Source: Octopus vulgaris
Lineage: Eukaryota
DNA length: 64,000 bases
Assembly: GCA_951406725.2 (NCBI GenBank)
Contig: OX597822.1
Span: 13,826,001-13,890,000, forward strand
Reading direction: 5' to 3'
Positions within the stretch are counted from its first letter, which is position 1; the number at the start of each line of letters is the position of its first letter. Shown here piece after piece: positions 506 to 64,000 of the stretch. The notes beneath the pieces are model-generated. The model had not been told where the DNA came from. It saw only the letters and a program-made list of their open reading frames with translations, and did no database searches. Both the position numbers and the translations under genes were made by a program.

Positions 506-683
506 GGTCCCGGGTTGATTCGGGGTTAACCACAGTAAATAAGGTACTCAATACATAGCAGAGTAAAATTAATTTATTATATAGAAGGAGCTTTACAGGA
601 CTAGAACTGTTTCATTCAAGAGAAATCTTCAAGATTTCTCTTGAATGAAACAGTTCTAGTCCTGTAGAAGCTCCTTCTATATA

Positions 684-689
<6 letters not shown>
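504..689. mobile_element. Short fold-back insertion of hammerhead element family H in a (TA)n array
   Basis: 504-630 nearly identical to 27048-27174; 572-689 is a palindrome centred at 630 with one 1-nt indel; (TA)n on both sides. Confidence 0.9.
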
Positions 690-12988: not shown

Positions 12989-13559
12989 ATGTGTGTGTAT
13001 ATATGTGTGTGTATATATATATATATATGCGTGTATATATATATATGTGTGTGTGTATATATATGTGTGTGTGTGTATATATATGTGTGTGTTTATATAT
13101 ATATGTATATATATGTTTATATTTATACATATGCATAGACGCACACACATACACACATACACACATACATACATACAGATATACATTCAGACAAACAGAC
13201 AAACAAACAAAAACACACACACATAATGGATTCTCTAGTCGACCCAGACCTATGAGGGTCCAAGCAGTCACTATCACAACTGTTAGACTACCCACATAGT
13301 TGACTTGATTTCGATGAAGAAGCCTTTTATAGGATCACTCACACTTTTAGGAAATCCTCATACCAGAAATTAGGGAAAATGTTTGCCATGGACTTAATGA
13401 AGTTCGTATCTCAGGCTTTTCTATAAGAGTACTTGTTTGGATACTAAACTGGTGCTAATTTCACTCTGGAATTTTGCCTCTATATCTACACATGGACAAG
13501 AGTTGTGTGCATACATGCATATATACGTACATGTATGTGAGTGGGGGTATCTACCGACA

Positions 13560-13833
13560 TATCAAATGTAAGCATAACAGGCCGGATATTGTTGTTTGGG
13601 ACAGAAGGGCAAAGGTATGTACCGTCGTAGAGGTCAAATGCCCTAAAGATATAAATAATTCTTTGAAAATCAAAGAAAAAGAGGATATCTATGGACAACT
13701 GCTTCAAAACCTCCAGCTTCTGTATCAGAACTATGAATTCATATTCATTCCAATGATAATTGGAGCTCTAGGGTTTGCTAGTAAATGCTTAAAAGAGAAT
13801 CTGCACAAAAGATTTTGGAATGTAAGTTGTTGA
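13560..13833 (+). pseudogene. Restriction-like endonuclease (RLE) domain fragment of a non-LTR retrotransposon
   Basis: NRPDIVVWD..VVEVKCP..KEKEDIYGQL..IPMIIGALG matches the RPD..E..K..KY..GALG RLE signature. Confidence 0.8.
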
Positions 13834-20388: not shown

Positions 20389-21052
20389 TACATTGAAATA
20401 ATCTCTGAACTTGTGCAACCATTCTGATTCTCTTTTCGACATATTCATTTTTACTGATTTTCAAGAATAATGTTGCCTTTGTTCAGTTTTATAAGTGCTG
20501 TTCTTTACTTTTATCTGGTATATTTTCTCATTCCTTATCTCATTCAAATTCATACTTTCATTTCTCATAGTTGGTCTAAGCAGGTATTTTCTTCTATTCC
20601 CCTTCTCACCCACCCCCCCATTCCATTTCATCTAATCTATTTCAACCTATAATTTATTATTGTAATTTATTATTTTTTGATTTCATGTCTTCATTTATTT
20701 CTTTATAATTTTTCACGCATCCTCCTTCCACTCATAGATTTATTCTACAATCTAACACATGATTTTTCCAAAATTAGTGACTTCATATTTCTTTACCATC
20801 ACAGAAATTTTTCATTTTATTCCCTTTTCATTTTCCCACATTTTCACACTCCATACTCATAATCTGACTGGTACTTCTATGAAAACCTCCTCCATATTTG
20901 AATTTTTTCCCCACTTATCCCACTCCTGTATTTAACTCTTTAAAATAAATTTTTTAAAAAGCTGCATTCCTTCATGGCTTTGTTCACCTTGATAAGAACG
21001 CTTACCATTATTTCTACACATTTTATCTGGTTTTTAAATATTAAATAATATA

Positions 21053-21226
21053 GGCGCAGGAGTGGCTGTGTGGTAAGTAGCTTGCTAACCAACCACATGG
21101 TTCCAGGTTCAGTCCCACTGCGTGGCATCTTAGGCATGTGTCTTCTGCTATAGCCCCGTGCCGACCAATGCCTTGTGAGTGGATTTGGTAGACGGAAACT
21201 GAAAAAAGCCTGTCGTTTATATTATA

Positions 21227-21272
<46 letters not shown>

Positions 21273-21484
21273 TTGTGTGTCTGTGTTTGTCCCCCTAGCA
21301 TTGCTTGACAACCGATGCTGGTGTGTTTACGTCCCCGTCACTTAGCGGTTCGGCAAAAGAGACCGATAGAATAAGTACTGGGCTTACAAAGAATAAGTCC
21401 CGGGGTCGATTTGCTCGACTAAAGGCGGTGCTCCAGCATGGCCGCAGTCAAATGACTGAAACAAGTAAAAGAGTAAAAGAGAGT
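21053..21484 (+). mobile_element. tRNA-derived SINE family B with internal (TA)n(TG)n
   Basis: tggctgtgtggtaag A-box, ggttcagtccc B-box, internal microsatellite, tail gaaacaagtaaaagag; several copies in the window. Confidence 0.9.
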
Positions 21485-21945
21485 ATACATATTCCCCTAA
21501 ACACCAAAATACTTGAATTTACAACAGCATTTATTATGTACGGGTGCAAAGAATTTTCATCTCCTCATTTGCATATATTCCATCTATACAACGACTTCAA
21601 TCTTTTTCTACGTCAATTATTATTATACAGGGTGGCTCCAAAATAGGTTTACAGTTATCTCGAAGGCACTTTAAATATCTTTTAAAACATTTTAATACCT
21701 TAAATTTCTATCTTACAAACTGAAAAGAGAGCTTCACAAAATTAAATAAATTAGCGGAGAATAGTGGTTTCATATTTTTTGTGATTGAGAATTATCCAAA
21801 ATTTTGACTACCTCCTTCTATCTGTACATCACTTCAAACGCACTATACAGACATGCATGCATTCATCTATCCAACCATTCATACATACACACACACATAC
21901 ATACATACACACATACATACACACACATATACATATACATATACA

Positions 21946-24753: not shown

Positions 24754-25145
24754 ATAATATATACATATATGTATATATATGCATATACGCAATAGGACTG
24801 GGGAAGCACCGCCTTTTAGTTGAAGAAATTGACCCCTAAACTTATTCTTTTAAGCCTGGTGCTTATTCTATCGGTCTCTTATGCCGAACCGCTAATTTAC
24901 GAGGATGTAAACACACCAACATCGGTTGTCAAGTGATAGTGACGGGGACAAACCGACACAAACACACACATATAAATACATACAATAGGCTTCTTTCAGT
25001 TTCCACCTACCAGATCCATTCACAAGACTTTGGTTGGCCCGAGGCTATAGTAGGAGACATTTGCCCTTAGTGCAACGCAGCGGGGCTGAACCCGGAACCA
25101 TGTGGTTAGGGAGAAAGCTTCTTACCACACGCCCACGCCTGCGCC
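24480..25145. mobile_element. Family B SINE head (+, 24480-24655) and family B SINE (-, 24805-25145)
   Basis: Similarity to 21053-21484 in opposite orientations. Confidence 0.75.
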
Positions 25146-26993: not shown

Positions 26994-27051
<58 letters not shown>

Positions 27052-27132
27052 TCCCGGGTTGATTCGGGGTTAACCACAGTAAGTAAGGTACTCAATACAT
27101 AGCAGAGTAAAATTAATTTATTATATAGAAGG

Positions 27133-27181
27133 AGCTTCTACAGGACTAGTACTGTTTCATTCAAGAGATCTTCAGGAAGCT
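27133..27181 (-). ncRNA. Type I hammerhead motif, left arm (helix II shorter by 2 nt)
   Basis: Revcomp: agcttc-CTGAAGA-tctcttgaat-GAAA-cag tactagtc ctg-TA-gaagct. Confidence 0.65.
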
Positions 27182-27523
27182 ATTTAACAAGAATTGTATT
27201 AGCATTTATACATTTAGGCAGGTTTAAAGGAGTGGTGGTGGGGGACTTTTTTGGGGGTAGGCATAGCGCAAAATATCATACTTGGGGGAGTGGTCAAGGA
27301 GTCAGTGGTAAGTTAGATGAAAGAATAGATAAATAAAAAAATAAAATAATAAAATAAAATAAAAAAATAAAATAAAAAAATAAAAAAATAAAAAATATAT
27401 ATAAAAAATATATATATAAAAATATATATATATAAAAAAAGGGGGGATAGAGTTATAGGTAAATAAGGAGATTCTCACTTATACCTATACACATATGTAT
27501 ACGTATCTACACACATATATATA

Positions 27524-27565
<42 letters not shown>

Positions 27566-27862
27566 TATATACACATATACATACATATCTACATACACAC
27601 ATACATACACCCGCCCACATATACAAATTTATACACATGCACATGCATATACCTGTCTACACATACACACACGTATATATGCATACACTCACTCCCATGC
27701 ATGCACGCATACACACATGTATATATATACACACGACCACACATACATATATACACAGAAAAATATATATTCATACGCACATACACTCATGCACACACAA
27801 CACACCTAGTTCCCTATATACACATATTTACACCTATATATACATACACCCACATACACATA

Positions 27863-27904
<42 letters not shown>

Positions 27905-28001
27905 CACGCATACATATATATACATGTGTGCACATACATACATACACATATACATACACACACACATACACATGTGTACCTATACATACCTACACATACA
28001 C

Positions 28002-28056
<55 letters not shown>

Positions 28057-28447
28057 CCAATACAGGCCCATTCCCTAATTTTAATTTTATTATCTTCATT
28101 TATTACTTTTGTTATCTTTGATCGCTAGAGCTAAGGATCCTGGCTATGGCAGCATGTCCATTTGTCTGTCTACTAGAAGGCAAGTACTCATTCCCGCACG
28201 CACACTCATTAGCACGTACATTCACCCATTCGTACACTCATACACATACACGTACGCACGCGTTATATTCATACATACAAACATCTACATACGTTCACGT
28301 ATATACACATACGTACTCGTACCTACAGATTCGTGTCTACACTTTAGGAGGCTAGTCTATACATATACACCAATAAATATACATATATATATATATACAC
28401 ATATACATACACACACACACATATACTCCTACATACAGATACATACC

Positions 28448-28501
<54 letters not shown>

Positions 28502-28898
28502 CATACATACACACACACACATATATATACACACACATACATACACATATATATACATACACAAACATATATACACACATATATATATATACACGTGTAT
28601 GGGTACGCATGTATATGTGTATGTGCGTGTATGTGTATGTATGCATATATGTATGTATGCATGTATATGTGTATGTATATATGTGTGTAAGTGTGTGCAT
28701 ATATGTATATGTAAGTATGTGTGCGTGTATGAGTACGTATGTATGCTTGCACACGTGTATATATGTGTGTGTGTGTATATATATGGATGCACGTGCGTGT
28801 GTGCACGTGTATGGGTACGCATGTATATGTGTATGTGCGTGTATGCGTATACGTGTATGTATGTATGTGTGTGCGTATATTTGTATATGTATGTGTGA

Positions 28899-28935
<37 letters not shown>

Positions 28936-29135
28936 TGGGGGTGTGTGTATGCGTATAAATGCATGTAAGTATGGATGTATGGATGTATGTATGTATGTAT
29001 ACGTATGTATGTGTTTGTGTGTATATGTATGTATGTGTGTGTATGTGTGTATATATATATATGTGTGTATATATGTTTGTGTATGTATATATATGTGTAT
29101 GTATGTGTGTGTATATATATGTGTGTGTGTGTATG

Positions 29136-29195
<60 letters not shown>

Positions 29196-29588
29196 GGTAT
29201 GTATCTGTATGTAGGAGTATATGTGTGTGTGTGTATGTATATGTGTATATATATATATATGTATATTTATTGGTGTATATGTATAGACTAGCCTCCTAAA
29301 GTGTAGACACGAATCTGTGTAGGTACGAGTACGTATGTGTATATACGTGAACGTATGTAGATGTTTGTATGTATGAATATAACGCGTGCGTACGTGTATG
29401 TGTATGAGTGTACGAATGGGTGAATGTACGTGCTAATGAGTGTGCGTGCGGGAATGAGTACTTGCCTTCTAGTAGACAGACAAATGGACATGCTGCCATA
29501 GCCAGGATCCTTAGCTCTAGCGATCAAAGATAACAAAAGTAATAAATGAAGATAATAAAATTAAAATTAGGGAATGGGCCTGTATTGG

Positions 29589-29647
<59 letters not shown>

Positions 29648-29752
29648 GTGTATGTGTAGGTATGTATAGGTACACATGTGTATGTGTGTGTGTATGTATA
29701 TGTGTACATGTATGTATGTGCACACATGTATATATATGTATGCGTGTATATG

Positions 29753-29785
<33 letters not shown>

Positions 29786-30087
29786 GTACATATGTGTATG
29801 TGGGTGTATGTATATATAGGTGTAAATATGTGTATATAGGGAACTAGGTGTGTTGTGTGTGCATGAGTGTATGTGCGTATGAATATATATTTTTCTGTGT
29901 ATATATGTATGTGTGGTCGTGTGTATATATATACATGTGTGTATGCGTGCATGCATGGGAGTGAGTGTATGCATATATACGTGTGTGTATGTGTAGACAG
30001 GTATATGCATGTGCATGTGTATAAATTTGTATATGTGGGCGGGTGTATGTATGTGTGTATGTAGATATGTATGTATATGTGTATATA

Positions 30088-30131
<44 letters not shown>

Positions 30132-30495
30132 TATATATATGTGTGTAGATACGTATACATATGTGTATAGGTATAAGTGAGAATCTCCTTATTTACCTAT
30201 AACTCTATCCCCCCTTTTTTTATATATATATATTTTTTTATATATATATTTTTTATATATATTTTTTATTTTTTATTTTTTTATTTTTTTATTTTTTTAT
30301 TTTTTTATTTTATTTTTTTATTTTATTATTTTATATTTTTTATTTATCTATTCTTTCATCTAACTTACCACTGACTCCTTGACCACTCCCCCAAGTATGA
30401 TATTTTGCGCTATGCCTACCCCCCAAAAAAGTCCCCCACCACCACTCCTTTAAACCTGCCTAAATGTATAAATGCTAATACAATTCTTGTTAAAT

Positions 30496-30546
30496 AGCTT
30501 CCTGAAGATTTCTCTTGAATGAAACAGTACTAGTCCTGTAGAAGCT
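30496..30546 (+). ncRNA. Type I hammerhead ribozyme motif, right arm; predicted cleavage after GUA (30540)
   Basis: Helix I agcttc/gaagct; CTGAAGA; weak helix II ttc/gaa with U-U at its base; GAAA; helix III cag/ctg with palindromic ACTAGT in the loop. Confidence 0.8.
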
Positions 30547-30568
30547 CCTTCTATATAATAAATTAAAA

Positions 30569-30622
<54 letters not shown>

Positions 30623-30842
30623 TACATACACACACACACGTACATATATATATATATATGTATATACACAAGTGTGTTTGCATTTCTATATAAATTTTCT
30701 AGTCATAGATAGTAGGGATGGGGGAGAAGGTATGATTAAAGGGGAGGAGGAAAGGAAAAAAGAAAAAAGAAAAAGAGGAAAAAGAAGAAAAATGTATTTA
30801 TATATCTGTCTCCTCAAATTAGTGCTCGATGAAGATAACTAT

Positions 30843-41526: not shown

Positions 41527-41587
41527 TCTTTATACAAATGCATCTTCAACAACATCCATCAAGATTCAGACCGTATGCATGTATGTA

Positions 41588-41788
41588 TTCTTTTATTTTT
41601 TTTATTTGTTTCAGTCTTTTCACTGTGGTCATGCTAGAGCACCACCTTTGGTCGAGCAAATCGACCCCAGGACATATTCTTTGGAAGCCTAGTATTTATT
41701 CTATCTGTCTCTTTTGCCGCACCGCTAAGTTACGGGGACGTAAACACACCAGCATCGGTTGTCATGCGATGCTGGGCGACAAACACAG

Positions 41789-41864
<76 letters not shown>

Positions 41865-42034
41865 ATATACACGACGGGCTTCTTTCGGTTTCCGTCTATC
41901 AAGTCCACTCACAAAGCTTTGGTCGGTCCGAGGTTATAGTAGGAAACACTTCCCCAAGGTGCCATGCAGTGGGAATGAACCCGGAACCATGTGGTTGGTA
42001 AGCAAGCTACTTACCACACAGCCACTCCTGCGCC
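41588..42034 (-). mobile_element. SINE family B
   Basis: Revcomp similar to 21053-21484. Confidence 0.9.
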
Positions 42035-42049
42035 TATGTATGTATGTAT

Positions 42050-47918: not shown

Positions 47919-47957
<39 letters not shown>

Positions 47958-48090
47958 AAAATAGTAAAGTGTGAAAAAACGACAGAAGGCTTAAATGTTA
48001 AAAAATATATATATTTGTGTCAAAATGTCTGGAGAATATTGGGAAAATTTTTTTTCCTTTCCTTAAAATGACATAACTTTAAAATTTTTA

Positions 48091-48130
48091 AAGAAATTAC
48101 CGGTTTCGCGTGTAGCTTTTCAAATTTCTT
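48091..48130 (-). ncRNA. Minimal hammerhead motif of PLE-1 left arm
   Basis: Exact revcomp of 49464-49503. Confidence 0.75.
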
Positions 48131-48266
48131 GTGACGTTATGTTTATATTGCATGGAGTTATCGTTGTGTTTATTTTCAGGAGATTTCTAAATAAGGGGAG
48201 GTATTGAGTGATTTCTTCCGGTGTAAGGGAGATAATCGCTTAAAAATTTTTCCCCCCTTTCCCTTG

Positions 48267-48674
48267 TTAATTTCTCTGTATCAGTATGTTCGGATGGTTG
48301 AGTCTGGGTTTGTACTTTTCAATGAAGAATGTTTCCTTGTTCAGTCTCATTTGTGTTGATGATCCGAAAGCACATTGGTAAAATGGGAAGATTAAAAATT
48401 GTGGCAGTAGTTGCTTTGCGCATTTCTCAATGTGCTCACTAAAAGGTATCATTCTATATTCTGGGAATGCAATCTGTTGTCGATGCAGTGTGCATCTACG
48501 CCTGAGTGATAGTCCCGTGGAACCCACGTAGTCTTGGTGGCAGCCCGAGCATTTAATGACATAAATTATGTTTTCAGAGGCACAAGTAAAGTTAGATTTG
48601 ATCTTGAATTTATGTCCCCCTTTAAAGAAGAATTCTGATCCTTCCAATAGGTTAGGACATGTTGCACAGTTCGA
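48267..48674 (-). pseudogene. PLE GIY-YIG endonuclease, 5'-truncated inverted copy
   Basis: SNCATC..FTCASENIIYVIKCSGCHQDYVGST..RCTLH..FSEH..KETFFI. Confidence 0.9.
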
Positions 48675-49279
48675 ACCCCAGAAACAAAGAAGCCTTCACT
48701 ATCATCACCCAGAATTTACCAATACTTCATAAAAACCCAAAATTAAAGGAAATTCTAAACATACACCAAATCATTAAAAGCTACAAACAGCCTAAATCAC
48801 TTAAAAAGATCCTCACAAAGGCAAAATTGTCTTCTAAAATTACGGATGCAAAAGTAAAAAAATGTGGTAGATCGAACTATGCAACATGTCCTAACCTATT
48901 GGAAGGATCAGAATTCTTCTTTAAAGAGGGACATAAATTCAAGATCAAATCTAACTTTACTTGTGCCTCTGAAAACATAATTTATGTCATTAAATGCTCG
49001 GGCTGCCACCAAGACTACGTGGGTTCCACGGGACTATCACTCAGGCGTAGATGCACACTGCATCGACAACAGATTGCATTCCCAGAATATAGAATGATAC
49101 CTTTTAGTGAGCACATTGAGAAATGCGCAAAGCAACTACTGCCACAATTTTTAATCTTCCCATTTTACCAATGTGCTTTCGGATCATCAACACAAATGAG
49201 ACTGAACAAGGAAACATTCTTCATTGAAAAGTACAAACCCAGACTCAACCATAGGAACATACTGACACAGAGAAATTAA
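48675..49279 (+). pseudogene. PLE linker, Zn-knuckle and GIY-YIG endonuclease (Neptune/Naiad-like), 5'-truncated but open
   Basis: KKCGRSNYATC knuckle; NIIY..CxxC..YVG; CCHH pattern; conserved R, E and N of GIY-YIG. Confidence 0.9.
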
Positions 49280-49463
49280 CAAGGGAAAGGGAAAAACCAT
49301 CCGAACATACTGACACAGAGAAATTAACAAGGGAAAGGGGAAAAAAATTTTTAAGCGATTATCTCCCTTACACCGGAAGAAATCACTCAATACCTCCCCT
49401 TATTTAGAAATCTCCTGAAAATAAACACAACGATAACTCCATGCAATATAAACATAACGTCAC

Positions 49464-49503
49464 AAGAAATTTGAAAAGCTACACGCGAAACCGGTAATTT
49501 CTT
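49464..49503 (+). ncRNA. Minimal type I hammerhead motif with U3-A8 core variant
   Basis: aagaaat-TTGAAAA-gc tacac gc-GAAA-CCGGTA-atttctt: 7-bp helix I, palindromic ACCGGT, GUA site. Confidence 0.78.
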
Positions 49504-49674
49504 TAAAAATTTTAAAATTATGTCATTTTAAGGAAAGGAAAAAAAATTTTTCCAATATTCTCCAGACATTTTGACACAAATATATATATTTTTTAACATT
49601 TAAGCCTTCTGTCGTTTTTTCACACTTTACTATTTTCTTATATATTCACCCACGTGCTTTACCAAACAAACTTT

Positions 49675-49719
<45 letters not shown>

Positions 49720-49767
49720 AAGCAAGTCAAGATAGAAAATGCTAAAATAATTTTATAAAGAACATTT

Positions 49768-49804
49768 CAGTACCGGTTTCGGTCATTTGAGACCTTTTCA
49801 ACTG
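49768..49804 (-). ncRNA. Minimal type I hammerhead motif of PLE-2, U3-A8 variant
   Basis: Revcomp: cag-TTGAAAA-ggtc tcaaat gacc-GAAA-CCGGTA-ctg. Confidence 0.78.
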
Positions 49805-50218
49805 TAACGATTAAATAATTAAATTTAGAAAAATTAAAAGAATAATTTTTTTAAAAGAATATTTGTATAGTGTTCAAATATAAGTGGCATTTTCCTTGTT
49901 TCTGCCTTTCTCTGTCTCTCTTGTTTACTCTTGTGGGTTCAAGGTCCATGTGAATTCTTGGTAGGGAAGAAGAAGAAGAAGAAGAAGAAGAAGAAGAAGA
50001 AGAAAAAGAGGAGGAGGAGGAGGAGGAGGGAGAAGGGGAGGAAGAATTTGGGATTGCCTTGATTGTCGTTGGTCTGTGGTGGCTAAAAGTTCCTGCTGTT
50101 CAATTCATGAAAATATTTCTATTGAAAGGTTTGTTTATAGAATTTGCGTAGGTGTTATACTAAAAAGCATTAGTGATAAAGTTAGGAAGGAGAAGGGGGA
50201 GAAGAAGAAGTAGAAGAA

Positions 50219-50273
<55 letters not shown>

Positions 50274-50403
50274 GGAGAATATGAATGCGTGGAAGTAGTG
50301 GGATGTTGGATGACTTAAAGTTGGCATGTTGTGGGTTATAGATGTGATTGGGGCTGATTTTTAATGGATTCTTAGGAATGTAATATTTGCGTGTGTATTT
50401 GTG

Positions 50404-51480
50404 TTATTGTAAAGCTGAGGTGGATATATCGTTTGTCGTAGATGCGTTCAAAAGGTGCCTGTATTTTGTAATAAAGAGAGTTTCTTTACTTATTCGTTGG
50501 CTCGAGTTTGTATCGTCCCTGAATTGGTAGAGGGGGAAAATCCTGAAGCTTGGAGTTTTGTTGTTGGCGCAAATATCTATGTGTTGGCTGAATGCTATTT
50601 TTCTGTTTTGGGGAATTTTTATCTGGCATCTGTGCAGGGCCATTCTTTTACGTAAATTATTTTTTGTTTGACCTATGTATTGCTCTTGACACCCAGAGCA
50701 GGTTAGTGTGTATATCAGGTTCTCCGAAGCACATGTGAAATTGCTTTTCACTGTGAACCGTTGTCCCTGTTTGAAGGAGAACTCTGATCCCTCAATTAGA
50801 TAATTGCATATCCCACAATTGGGTGTTCCACATTTTTTTACTGTCGGATTCTGTGTTGATGAGCGTATTCGGACTTGTGTTAGGAGACTTTTCATGGATT
50901 TAAGCTGTCTCTTGCTTTTTATGATCGTGTGTGTTTGGAGGATTAAGTTCATCCTGTGGTCTTTTTGTAGCAGGGGTATATTTTGGAGGATGGTGTCGAA
51001 GGCTTCATTGTTGAGAGGGTTGTGTGTGGAGATGTATGGTAAGGCTTTTAGTCGTAAATTTTTCTTTTGAGTTGAAGGGCACGTTGAATGCATATGTCAA
51101 TTAGTGAAGGTGGGTAGTTCCTGGTGATGAGGATATCTTTTAGTTCATGTAGTTGTGTGTCTCTGGTGTTTGCATTAGAAACTATAGTACATATCCTTTT
51201 TGCTAGATTGAAGGGGATATTCATTCTGGTGTGTCTGGGGTGGTATGAATTGAAAGGAAGATATTGCTTAGAATCCGTAGGCTTTTAGTATATATCTGTT
51301 TCTATTACATTATTAGATTTCTTAATGAGGATGTCGAGGAAGGGAAGTTGTTGCTGGCTATATTCCATCGTGAATTGGATGTTTACGTCCAGTCCATTTA
51401 AAATTGCTTGGAATTCTTTCAGTTTATATTTTCATGTCAAAGAATGAAAGTCATCTAGGTATCTCTTCCAGTTGTTTTCT
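50404..51480 (-). pseudogene. PLE reverse transcriptase/GIY-YIG ORF, disrupted
   Basis: YLDD catalytic motif; in-frame stop and frameshifts upstream of the open EN segment. Confidence 0.9.
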
Positions 51481-51774
51481 ATGTAGAGGGAGAAAGGGCT
51501 GCCATATCTTTCTAGAACCTTATATGTGTATATATATATATATTCGATCTGGTGTTGAAACGAACGTAATTGACTTTGATGTAATACCGAGATGGACTTT
51601 TATGCTTTCCAGTTTGAGAAAACAAGTACCAACTGAGCACTGGGGTCGATGTAATCCCTGACATTTTTTTTCCTTGAGTCTTGGCCCTCCTAAGGCCAGT
51701 AAGTCAGTTTCCCTGGCAAAGAAATGATCGAGATGATATTCTCCCTGCACGGGTCGCTGGTTTGGCGCAGGACC

Positions 51775-55828: not shown

Positions 55829-56225
55829 CTCTTTTACTCTTTTATTCTTTTACTTGTTTCAGTCATTCAGACTGCGGCCATGCTGGAGCACCGCCTTTAA
55901 TCGAGCAACTCGACCCCGGGACTTATTCTTTTGTAAGCCCAGTACTTATTCTATCAATCTCTTTTGCCGAACCGCTAAGTAACGGGGACATAAACACACC
56001 AGCATCGGTTGTCAAGCAATGCTAGGGGGACAAACACACGCACGCATATATAAACATATATACGACGGGCTTTTTTCAGTTTCCGTCTACCAAATCCACT
56101 CACAAGGCATTGGTCGGCCCGAGGCTATAGTAGAAGACACTTGCCCAAGGTGCCACGCAGTGGGACTGAACCCGGGACCATGTGGTTGGTAAACAAGCTA
56201 CTTACCACACAGCCACTCCTGCGCC
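55829..56225 (-). mobile_element. SINE family B
   Basis: Revcomp similar to 21053-21484. Confidence 0.9.
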
Positions 56226-56456
56226 TAAATTATGTGCATGTCTCATAATTTTTTCCATAATGTATCTAGGACTACATTATCCGATGCGTCCTTCCTATTT
56301 TACGAAGACATTCCTGAGATTTGTTTTCTCTTCCTGGCAGGTCAAGCGACTGCTTACAAGCTCATTCCTTCGTTTATTCAAAATTCGACATATTATTAAG
56401 CATAATGTGAGACACCTGTACGCCAATGCTGGAGGTGTCGCTTATTCTGAACTCTT

Positions 56457-58320: not shown

Positions 58321-59097
58321 AGGATGGATGGTATTGTTTGTAGATTAGAGAAAGAAAGTTAGGAGCGTCGACAGATATGTTTGACCCACGAAAACAGTCA
58401 GATGTTTAGATATTTACACACACTTATACCCACATGAACACAGTCACACACATACTTGTCTTTATGCATTACGTGTATCCGCATGTGTTTGTGTCAATAT
58501 CCCGTCCTATGAGTCATGTATTAATTAAGCGGATCACAACAGTTAATGAATGCAGTTCGTTGATTAGTGGTTTCGTTTAACAGAAATAACATGTGAATCA
58601 TAGCATATTTTGAGGGGCGGGTCTTTCATCACTTTACCACTCTCTCGACATCGGAACTCATCTCAAATTCTTCTGTTTAGCAAACTCATATCAAGACGTT
58701 GACGTACGCATATATTTACTTTCCTTTGACGGGAATCAGAGTCTATCACATATTTTTGCTAGGTTCTTGTTTTGTTCTTTTTGCTGTTCCGTTTGCTGAT
58801 TATCACATGCAGTGTTGGTGGCAATCGTGCCATCTCTTTATATATGAAAGACGAAGACACATGTCACTGTTTCTCCTACTGACTATTTTCGTTGTTGTAG
58901 ACAAATGATTTCGTTTCATTGCGTAAAAAGCATTTTAAAAGCCCTCAGAATCAAACATCTTCATAAAAATTGTGGAAATTTAGAAATTAAATTTTTTAAT
59001 AAATACTGTTGCTAAATTTATCCCATACTCAAACATATCCCGTGAAATAATACTGTACTGGTATGCATAAGTTTATGTATGTATGTATGTATGTATG

Positions 59098-59131
<34 letters not shown>

Positions 59132-59142
59132 TGTATGTATGT

Positions 59143-59675
59143 ATTGACCGTGGTGACCGTGGTAGTTGGAGAAGGACTGTGCTTGAGGGGACAACTACTT
59201 CTGAGAAATCTCGAGTTGCGCATAGAAAAGTAAGGAGGGATGTCAGAAAGGGCATCGCTGTTGCACTTCCAGATAGTAAGGGTCTTCCTATGATGCTGAC
59301 ATGCAGTGTCTGTGCAAGACCCTGCCTCAATAAAGCTGGATTCAAGAGTCATCTTCGTAGTCATAAAACGAGACCAATGATTGACAACCAGGCCGCTGCT
59401 GGTGGTGCTGCACACCATACTAATCATACTAATCATATGTGTCAGGCATGTGGAAGGGAGTGTAATTCGGCAGGAGGACCTAAACGACATGCAAAGGTAC
59501 ATGAAGCCCAGTTACAACTACAGCCGGCTATTGCCGGTAAAGGTTTTAGCTGCCAATTCTGTACAAGACATTGTAGATCTTTAGCTGGGCTAAAAAGTCA
59601 CATTCGATCGCAGCACCTTTAACAGTTAAGCCTCGTGCAATGACCATACTCGATAAGGAGGGGGGCAGCTATCAT
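59143..59675 (+). mobile_element. 5'-truncated RTE-like LINE 3' end encoding three C2H2 fingers
   Basis: DRGSWR motif; three Cx2Cx12Hx3-4H fingers; stop at 59622; short 3' UTR; (ATGT)n on both sides. Confidence 0.75.
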
Positions 59676-61800: not shown

Positions 61801-62454
61801 AACACTGCTTTATTGGACATCAGGCGTTTTAATGTCACTCTCTTTCTCTCTCGCCATCTTCCTATCTATCTGTCTGCCTGCCTATCTGTCTGTCCGTCCG
61901 TCCGTCCGTCTATCTGTCTATCTATCTAACTACCTATCTATCTCCCCCTCTGTCTGTCTATCTGACTGACTGTCTGTCTGTTTCTCTCTCTCTCTCTCTA
62001 TCTGTCTACCTCTCTCTTTATGTATGAGCCTATTTCTCCTTACGTGCATGAAGAGAGGGGGATGTGTTTATGTCAATTGCGTTCAATTAGTAAATTCTAA
62101 TCTCTCTCTCTCTCTTTCCCTCTTTCTTTTTCTCTTTCTCCCTCATTCTATCTGTATGCTTGTATTTATGCGTACGCGCGTGTTTGGTTTGCCTCCAGTG
62201 CCAAAAAGTACTGTCACCAAAACAGGTTGAATATCTATTCATATTGTCATGGGTGAAACAGCTGCGCCCAATCGTCTCATTTCAGACGAGGGTCATGGCT
62301 GGAACGTCTTAGATCGTATCACTACACAACTATGACAACAGCCAAATCATCTGATAGACTGCAGGTTAAAAAAACACAACGTGGTAGTCTTTATAATGTA
62401 GATCAACTGGTTAGAAATTGCAGCCAAATCTCCCTCAAATAATCCCCTATCATA

Positions 62455-62612
62455 GGCACAGAAATGGCTGGTAAGAAGGCAGCTTCTCAACCACATGGCT
62501 CTGGGTTCAGTCCTACTGTGTGGCACCTTGGGTAAGTGTCTTCTACTATAGCCTAAGGTTGACCGAAGCCTTGTGAGTGGATTTGGTAGATGGAAACTGA
62601 AACAAGCTCGTC

Positions 62613-62676
<64 letters not shown>

Positions 62677-62897
62677 GTATGTGTGTGTTTGTAACTGTAT
62701 TTGTCCTCCCACCATCGCTTGACACCCGATATTAGTGTGTTTTGTCCCCGTAACTTAGCGTTTCGGTAAAAAGTGGACGATAGAATAAGTAATAGGCTTA
62801 CAAAGCATAAGTCCTGGTTTCGATTTGTTCGACTAAAAGGCGGTGCTCCAGCATGTCCGCAGCCAAATGACTGAAACAAGTAAAAGAATAAAAGAAT
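62455..62897 (+). mobile_element. SINE family B
   Basis: Similar to 21053-21484. Confidence 0.85.
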
Positions 62898-64000
62898 ATC
62901 ATTAAAAAAAAAGTTTGATGATAAAGTTGGCCATGGCCAGAACGCTCTTGACTATAGGGGTGTCCATCGGCGGTGACATAGTATTAAAAGACAGCAATGC
63001 CAACGGCCAAACTCTACAACAAAACGCTACATCATGCTATGTATTATCAAACCGCACCACATTGCATCTTTCCACACCGTCCCTAGGTTGCAGTACACTA
63101 CCTCGGTATATTTACACAGCACCACACCTTCTTCACCACCCCAGACCACCCTAAACCAGAACACAGAACGCACCAGCACCGCACCACAACAGCAACAGCA
63201 CCCATCACACATCATGGCTTATCGCATAACGCCTCCTCACTACATTATTGCTACCGCCATTTTCACCATCACCATCACCATCATCTACAACATACCATTC
63301 TATACTACACTACACCGCACCGTAACACCACGACTCCTCACCCTTATTACATTCAGCGCTGCCTGTAAAATATCTCAAATTTCCGATTCTATTTTGGTAA
63401 ATGGTACATTTTTAGTTTTTGGTTGGTTGTAGTGGGAGAGGAGAGAGAAGAAGAGGTGGGAGGTGGATAATGTTTGTTGTTTTGGTAAGAAGCCAGACAC
63501 AGGATAGAGAGATGAAGGTAGGAGGAGGTTAGAGAGAGAGAGAGAGGGGGAGAGAGAGAGAAAATGAGAAATCAAAAACAAAAAAGGAATAATGAAAGAA
63601 AGGAATGAAGAATGGAAGGAAGGAAAGAAAGAAGGGAGGACCGAAGAATGGAAGGTAGGAAGGAAACAGAAAGAGAGAAGGAAAGAATGGAAGAAAGAAA
63701 GAAAGAAAGGAAAGAAAGGAAAAAAGGGAAGAAGGAAGGAAAGAAAGAAAGAAAGGAATATAGAAAGAAGATGGGCGAGCGGAAAGATTTACAATTAAAG
63801 AATAGCAAGACAGGCGGTAGGGAAAGAAAGAAAGAATGAAAATAAGAAAGAAAAAGAAAGTGAACGAAAAGAAAAAATGAGGATAAGATTAAAAAGAAGT
63901 CGTGGATTAGAAGGAGAAAATGAACGAAAGAATTATTAAAATATGGCGTCAGTGGAAGGTAAATGGGTGATGTAGAGTTTAAATATAGCAGCGGAAGAAA

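Follow-up and report, generated by a model that had tools for sequence, protein, structure and literature searches.

We found that the palindrome at 27050-30566 of a 64-kb window (the whole stretch of octopus DNA that was analysed) is probably a hairpin insertion of the kind made by Penelope-like elements (PLEs), in which 5'-truncated copies of a repeated, non-coding and microsatellite-rich element lie head to head. The initial annotation had read this unit, hereafter the long unit, as a retroelement that was either retrozyme-like or a very long PLE 3' UTR. A retroelement of PLE type is upheld by its inverted truncated copies, its one-sided tail, its (TA)n target and the recurrence of the same form at 47954-49677.

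The best self-BLAST match of the window pairs 27113-28594 with 30566-29047, in agreement with the palindrome originally described as having arms of about 1.5 kb and a spacer of about 450 bp (452 nt by our measure). Global alignment of the arms, which are 1482 and 1520 nt long, gave 1480 matches, 2 substitutions and 12 indels, confirming that they had been copied faithfully apart from indels. The gaps of all 12 indels fall in the left arm. Consensus errors in the assembly may be responsible for this one-way direction. The start of the element was corrected from 27048 to 27050, which is preceded by (TA)25 ending at 27049. Base counts in the spacer (132 G and 26 C) reveal the same G/T strand bias as in the right arm, and from this match the spacer is taken as the 5' continuation of the right copy, being most likely a further 5' part of that longer copy. 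On this reading, the unit would consist of an untailed long copy (28595-30566) facing a tailed, shorter one (28594-27050), and the visible, non-tandem element (28595-30566 plus the tail) would be at least 2035 nt long. Both copies open with the same junction hexamer, which is found 47 times in the body. The features are collected in Table 1.

Table 1. Positions of the palindrome, its parts and related insertions in the 64-kb window
Feature	Position	Strand	Basis
Left arm: shorter, 5'-truncated copy, bearing the tail	27113..28594	-	self-BLAST and alignment
Right arm: longer copy, without tail	29047..30566	+	self-BLAST and alignment
Spacer, degenerate TG/TA, 452 nt; probably the 5'-most family sequence seen in the window	28595..29046	+	reading from strand bias
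Inversion junction, short self-complementary word	28589..28600	.	sequence inspection
Body block, repeat family in public runs; mirror at ~29276-29592 (+)	28053..28366	-	run contigs
Type I hammerhead-like motif; predicted cut after 30540	30496..30546	+	descriptor scan
Hammerhead-like motif with 2-nt deletion in helix II; predicted cut after 27139	27133..27181	-	descriptor scan
Left half of presumed target, (TA)25	27000..27049	.	sequence
Right half of presumed target, (TA)18	30573..30608	.	sequence
3' tail, 63 nt, left end only; stops 89 nt past predicted cut	27050..27112	-	arm alignment
Miniature copy: hairpin from the same family, inserted in (TA)n	506..689	.	alignment to terminus
Hairpin insertion of a different family, in (TA)n; codes PLE GIY-YIG endonuclease	47954..49677	.	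BLAST, Pfam, tblastn
Third family: one-armed, 5'-truncated PLE with remnants of RT thumb and GIY-YIG	49717..51548	-	Pfam, tblastn

Most of the element looks like simple repeat. Each arm contains three (TA)n arrays of 10-22 units, those of the right arm being (TA)21, (TA)22 and (TA)15. Alternation of purines and pyrimidines reaches 0.90-0.93 across 28595-29270 and 29593-30170, and about two thirds of 28595-30566 alternates in this way, the remainder being a 322-nt mixed block, a T-rich tract and a 221-nt terminus. A single strand bias is kept along the whole body. As had been stated earlier, there is no credible ORF: frames of at least 100 aa in the element gave only simple-repeat translations, and tblastn with five PLE proteins detected no coding remnant within 27050-30566 (best E=2.3). 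Neither the body block (z of +1.76) nor the terminal 281 nt (z of -0.44) showed special structure, and no tRNA gene was found, so that no SINE-type head was seen. Other degenerate TA/CA fields of the window resemble the body only generically (best 79%, for its 5' part), their longest exact matches to it being near-pure TA runs, and no older copies were therefore identified in the window.

Next, we examined the ends. Both the long unit and the miniature copy are flanked by (TA)n on both sides, with (TA)25 and (TA)18 bordering the former, which supports the proposed insertion into (TA)n. The tail is 63-66 nt long and single-ended at both loci, and that of the long unit is identical to 506-568 at 62 of 63 nt. 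This length exceeds the 30-40 nt usual for PLEs, a point against the PLE reading. The untailed right arm of the long unit ends at 30566, 26 nt beyond the predicted cut. In the miniature copy the tail is again at the left end and finishes on the same base as that of the long unit; its short end lies at cut+23, and it is devoid of the body. An independent occurrence of the terminus had been claimed for 504-689; the same terminus with the same asymmetry was indeed found at 506-689, but both of its hammerheads are truncated 5' of or within the core, leaving neither complete. The loop-3 position is A in both arms of the long unit and T in both arms of the miniature copy. Measured from the predicted cut, the four ends of these loci lie 23-89 nt beyond it, so that an RNA ending at 30540, as proposed in the initial annotation, is not the template that was inserted. 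Partial tandem (direct pLTR) copies were seen at neither of these two loci of the window. A MITE with symmetric terminal inverted repeats, or a fold-back DNA transposon, was also considered and rejected: at each of the two loci one end is 63-66 nt longer than the other, and the arms range from about 60 to 1500 nt between loci while the outer ends stay fixed.

Scanning the 64-kb window for CUGANGA...GAAA with helices I and III gave two matches, both in the element. The right motif possesses a 6-bp helix I, CUGAAGA, an extra U after A9, GAAA and GUA, with a helix III of 4 bp closed by a near-palindromic loop; its helix II is weak (3 bp over a U.U). An extra base and a palindromic loop are given as traits of PLE hammerheads in PMC4209133. 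The G10.1-C11.1 pair, called highly conserved in PLE hammerheads in the same source, is absent from helix II. An axolotl hammerhead with a U.U at the base of helix II, HHR_Amex2, is reported to cleave 22% in 1 h (PMC7229834). As modelled, the right motif qualifies as a type I hammerhead, minimal or near-minimal, with an atypical helix II. Thus, of the two type I hammerheads previously placed near the outer ends, the right one is complete, and the left one, which likewise has a 6-bp helix I, a 4-bp helix III and GUA, is damaged by a 2-nt deletion in helix II. Because of this deletion the left copy was missed by a second descriptor, written after the motifs had been seen, which kept the right copy together with three motifs in the two coding PLEs of the window and matched in 1 of 150 shuffled control windows. 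Rfam gave no match at gathering score anywhere in the window and, at E<=10 across 30300-30700, no hammerhead but only microsatellite-driven miRNA and snoRNA noise. The predicted hammerhead fold (-7.3 kcal/mol) lies 1.2 kcal/mol above the predicted minimum (-8.5 kcal/mol). When 20 nt were added downstream, a rival predicted hairpin captured helix I, and the helix III segment is predicted to self-dimerize at -15.2 kcal/mol, compared with -1.4 kcal/mol for its hairpin. The fold energies and the rival hairpin, like the missing pair and the lack of an Rfam match, count against the motifs, which may still act as ribozymes. ATGs within and after the motif reach a stop within four codons, so no frame is opened in the hammerhead or tail.

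The body proved to be repeated over one 314-bp block. Among 24 listed public runs, 20 (from 6 studies) contain 27051-28372 wholly or partly, with shares of 46-85% of 134 sampled words, many of these being small data sets. We compared contigs of four runs (X1, X7, X13 and X2) with 28053-28450; contig cover amounted to 28053-28366, repeats in 28367-28450 being skipped. Contigs matching the body block numbered 613 in X1, which is a DNA run, 101 in X7, 15 in X13 and 7 in X2. The X1 contigs comprised 284 at 99% identity or above, 196 at 95-99%, 105 at 90-95% and 28 under 90%. Two X7 contigs reached depths of 734.5 (163 nt, 4 differences) and 838.6 (28230-28351, no differences), alongside others at 3.6 and 5.1. 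The stretch 28230-28351 is degenerate CA/TA sequence inside the body block, and Markov models of the other fields of the window yielded no chance presence of its 31-mers. A second subfamily, 87-89% alike, was found in X7, X2 and X13 (25 differences in 224 nt, 27 in 251 and 14 in 111), and it also runs on into CA-rich sequence. The 314-bp body block, including its degenerate CA/TA sequence, is a repeat family. This bears out the claim that the body is repeated together with its microsatellite-like sequence, and a single-copy body, which would have spoken against the annotation, is contradicted for 28053-28366. The block is present in roughly 150 or more copies, a rough bound derived from run X1 (the summed depth of 206,589 at 28165-28178 was divided first by 31, for the overlapping words, and then by 43), in which summed contig depth does not equal copy number; long private-variant contigs of X1 have depths of 24-46. 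Alleles at 28136 and 28151 that are common to both arms of the long unit are rare in X1. None of these contigs, which cover 28053-28366, joins the body to the terminus; the two are probably linked in other copies too. In collections of metagenomes, prokaryotes and viruses, an exact search for a 25-nt terminal motif found none, as expected of an animal repeat.

Two coding PLEs lie in the same window, and tblastn with the five PLE proteins maps both. The one at 47954-49677, 17 kb from the long unit, has inverted arms in the same layout, a U3-A8 hammerhead in each arm and a 32-nt tail at one end. Its GIY-YIG domain scored below the Pfam cut-off (E=0.004) and shares 55-74% identity with four PLE proteins, among them two with a Pfam RT domain; the five longer relatives among 365 candidates are all PLE-like, and two of them list RT domain PF00078. 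The one at 49717-51548 possesses a hammerhead and a simple-repeat-rich untranslated region (UTR) of about 600 nt, and its GIY-YIG domain at 50404-51096 is above the Pfam cut-off (E=2e-5). Beyond the ribozyme core, the terminus of the long unit has no similarity to either of these PLEs. As the coding PLE at 47954-49677 shares the hairpin form, the palindrome is an ordinary product of PLE insertion in the octopus genome and not special to the family of the long unit. SINE-like repeats and the microsatellite load agree with an octopus as host.

How such a hairpin could arise is suggested by published PLE data. PLE insertions are reported to carry an inverted 5'-truncated copy and a 30-40-bp tail at either end, with a bias to (TA)n (PMC8557442), and opposite-strand hammerhead pairs have been reported for PLEs (PMC4209133). 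According to PMC11167929, an Anolis PLE protein for which a dimer is predicted both cuts the two target strands and extends them in vitro. It uses uncut RNA without need of ribozyme cleavage, and its cDNAs begin at either of two sites inside the RNA, downstream of the hammerhead, between which the tail lies. This two-site start explains why the ends are fixed at +23-26 and +89 and why the inserts extend past the cut. By analogy, a PLE reverse transcriptase-endonuclease would nick both strands of a self-complementary (TA)n, and two cDNAs would be started on element RNA that is uncut and of a single origin. One would begin 89 nt and the other 23-26 nt past the hammerhead cut site, so that the one-sided tail would be the sequence between the two start points. 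Growing inward, the cDNAs would stop at different points and join at a few self-complementary bases, the surplus 452 nt of the longer one remaining as the spacer. The microsatellite-like body would thereby move as part of the element.

The layout itself suggests that a PLE enzyme inserted the long unit; it is the layout that points to the enzyme, since no RT or EN sequence is linked to the terminus. A two-cDNA route would also fit the position of the tail, which is on the shorter arm in the long unit and on the longer arm at 47954-49677. Given our reading of the spacer, a tail on the shorter arm excludes a simple fold-back from the tail end for the long unit. The junction word fits the route weakly in the long unit because the hexamer occurs 47 times in the body, and more strongly at 47954-49677, where the word has 2 occurrences. 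Sharing of alleles between arms within an insertion indicates one source RNA or locus, although later gene conversion between arms could explain it as well.

We then asked whether the element is autonomous. We lean slightly toward a truly non-autonomous, ORF-free PLE parasite of at least 2 kb that is moved in trans by a (TA)n-targeting PLE, a reading to which we give somewhat less than an even chance. Its case is built on the stretch of 1907 nt or more that precedes the hammerhead and bears no coding trace, where the two coding PLEs have 192 and 603 nt, on the failure of tblastn to find any trace of PLE proteins in the element, and on the subfamily of about 88% likeness, which likewise continues into CA-rich sequence. 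Non-autonomous PLE derivatives such as Chlamys MRC1 are moreover described in PMC8557442, in whose supplement four short terminal motifs and one body motif of our family were absent. However, both copies are truncated, with the 5' end outside what was seen, and the terminus differs from those of the two coding PLEs beyond the ribozyme core, so that neither stands out as its partner. Another reading is only slightly less probable: the copies may be 3' ends of an ordinary autonomous PLE whose UTR grew to at least 2 kb by microsatellite expansion. Truncation at the 5' end is the rule in PLEs by the account of PMC8557442, and the neighbour at 49717-51548 carries simple repeats in its UTR. Recent Penelope insertions of Octopus vulgaris, given as 1,795,539 bp over 329 insertions in PMC13282606, average about 5.5 kb, and shrimp Penelope consensuses reach 7.6 kb (PMC3124438), lengths that leave room for long UTRs. 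RT-coding Penelopes of shrimp are reported to carry SSRs along (PMC7878876). Such a UTR, at least 1.9 kb here, would nevertheless be 3 to 10 times as long as those of the neighbours, and these 1.9 kb are free of any coding remnant.

It is improbable that only the terminal 220-290 nt are a PLE end, with the body representing another repeat or host flank acquired by read-through on one or a few occasions. The miniature copy does lack the body, there are reports of PLEs mobilizing host sequence in trans (PMC8557442), and other dispersed repeats of the window also contain internal microsatellites. But small runs contain 46-68% of the sampled words of 27051-28372, and the share of 0.68 in X2 is above the roughly 0.55 that terminal parts and the tested block could give at most. 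About 30% or more of the words from the degenerate body must thus be present in X2, where chance would supply about 19%, a weak contrast with 134 words, and the strand bias of the body is uniform throughout. Least probable is that the hairpin arose around a short PLE end by local inverted duplication, or that it is an artefact of assembly or a chimera. The single direction of the 12 indels would fit this, but the arms finish exactly where the element does and take in no host sequence, 506-689 has the same end points, public runs contain further copies of the body, and a second family (47954-49677) has the same form.

Compared with known systems, the long unit shares the inverted 5'-truncated copy, one-sided tail, (TA)n target and absence of a readable target duplication with EN+ PLEs of the Neptune/Nematis type as described in PMC8557442 and PMC4209133, and also a type I hammerhead in which A9 is followed by an extra base and loop 3 is palindromic (PMC4209133). 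It differs from them in having no ORF, at least 1.9 kb of non-coding sequence with about two thirds in purine/pyrimidine alternation, a tail of 63-66 instead of 30-40 nt, a 4-bp helix III and a weak helix II. An ORF for RT plus GIY-YIG is absent at 27050-30566, and for want of it at this locus the long unit is not filed as an autonomous PLE. Poseidon_Ac (PAc) of Anolis, by the description in PMC11167929, similarly has a tail bounded by two fixed ends downstream of the hammerhead, inserts with sequence past the cut and an AT-rich target; its ORF begins inside the hammerhead, whereas the ATGs of the long unit stop within four codons.

Animal non-LTR retrozymes, described as non-coding, type I hammerhead-bearing and presumably PLE-dependent (PMC7229834; bioRxiv 10.64898/2026.07.22.740005), resemble the long unit in these respects. 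In contrast, they form head-to-tail tandems with a consensus of 51-972 bp and circular RNA according to the latter source, and the long unit, whose ends are fixed beyond the cut, is an inverted pair measuring 2 kb or more. The term "retrozyme-like" in the initial annotation is therefore withdrawn: both loci have inverted pairs, no tandem unit with the motif was found at them, and at least 2035 nt stand against 51-972 bp. Chlamys elements of the MRC1 type are likewise non-coding, PLE-dependent and of a microsatellite-targeting clade. As reported in PMC8557442, they differ in belonging to green algae, mostly without a hammerhead and often head to tail, and in having 3' similarity to an autonomous partner, while the long unit matches neither of the two coding PLEs of the window. 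In the SSR-carrying Penelopes of penaeid shrimp (PMC7878876), repeats also move inside the element and change length later; those copies code RT, whereas simple-repeat-like DNA makes up most of the visible element here. We found no published description of the long-unit family in a search to which Repbase, Dfam and the O. vulgaris library were external, and it may be catalogued there.

Each of the individual parts is precedented. It is on the unlikely side, though well worth considering, that together they make up a non-autonomous PLE parasite of more than 2 kb with hundreds of copies, at least two subfamilies and a body consisting largely of its own target sequence. If this is true, each insertion would deliver several new (TA)14-22 arrays in a feedback loop, and a real share of apparent microsatellite DNA would be transposed while being invisible to masked repeat annotation. 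Seeding of new targets by the internal (TA)n is plausible, as each arm has three arrays of 10-22 units. Some simple-repeat DNA in the octopus genome has likely been copied from place to place and not grown in situ. The long unit provides a concrete case in which microsatellite-looking DNA is a dispersed repeat family: standard masking would call most of the element simple repeat and overlook it, and markers designed in it would be multi-locus. Were the family ORF-free, non-autonomous PLE derivatives would extend well beyond retrozyme size. Finally, three hairpins in one window make the formation of PLE inverted insertions testable, as tails on the shorter arm, fixed double ends and alleles shared within insertions can be counted genome-wide, weighing fold-back against joining of two cDNAs.

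When the two arms of the main hairpin element were compared over 27168-28461 (left) and 29180-30510 (right), the left arm was the gapped side in all 12 of the 12 arm indels. The one-way direction of these indels may reflect an assembly error or biased slippage. At position 28325, the left-arm form is the one carried by the majority of the repeat family, as judged from contigs of public sequencing runs aligned to the body block. For the indel within the hammerhead, the right-arm form is common to three of the four hammerhead copies. Near the inversion junction of the same element, a short stretch of the spacer is duplicated, and the copy further from the junction contains a 6-nt palindrome at the position corresponding to it.

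The body block also revealed differences between public runs. For 28099-28170, the haplotype of the window itself is very rare among contigs of run X1, whereas in run X13 it was recovered as an exact 72-nt contig with a depth of 38.8, compared with 77.2 where the contig carries the common form and 42.9 where it carries the diverged form. This contrast could be due to a population difference or to an over-expressed source. Two loose ends of the X1 contigs, at 28065 and 28342, have mutually reverse-complementary sequences that probably derive from a library linker and not from the genome.

Other features of the window are listed below.

Repeats and coding fragments located in the window
Feature	Position	Strand	Remarks
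Second hairpin PLE insertion	47954-49677		target (TA)n; arms of 721/774 nt
Third PLE family	49717-51548		one-armed, frameshifted
Dispersed family, ~450 bp	21050-21491, 41582-42037, 55835-56233, 62451-62898, 24805-25145
Internal duplication in spacer, ~40 nt	28593-28632 and 28804-28846
Fragment with PD-(D/E)xK-like motif	13459-13833	+	weak VRR_NUC match, below cut-off
183-codon frame	59071-59622	+	two or three C2H2-type zinc fingers

The second hairpin insertion of a Penelope-like element (PLE) encodes a GIY-YIG C-terminus including the Cx4CxxC linker motif, which is intact in the left arm, and its hammerheads are of the U3-A8 type. A 32-nt tail is borne by the longer arm. The same 6-mer opens both copies and occurs only these two times within the element. 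A (TA)n run separates this insertion from the adjoining one-armed PLE, whose UTR contains (GAA)n and (GGA)n tracts. Among the other coding fragments, the one with the PD-(D/E)xK-like motif is similar to the restriction-like endonuclease found in retrotransposons of the R2/R4 type, and the zinc-finger frame is possibly a retrotransposon C-terminus.

Self-BLAST of the window showed that copies of the dispersed family, which we take to be similar to octopus SINEs, are 66-85% alike. In at least three of them, a (CA)n/(TA)n tract lies inside the repeat, indicating that repeat-borne microsatellites are common in this window.
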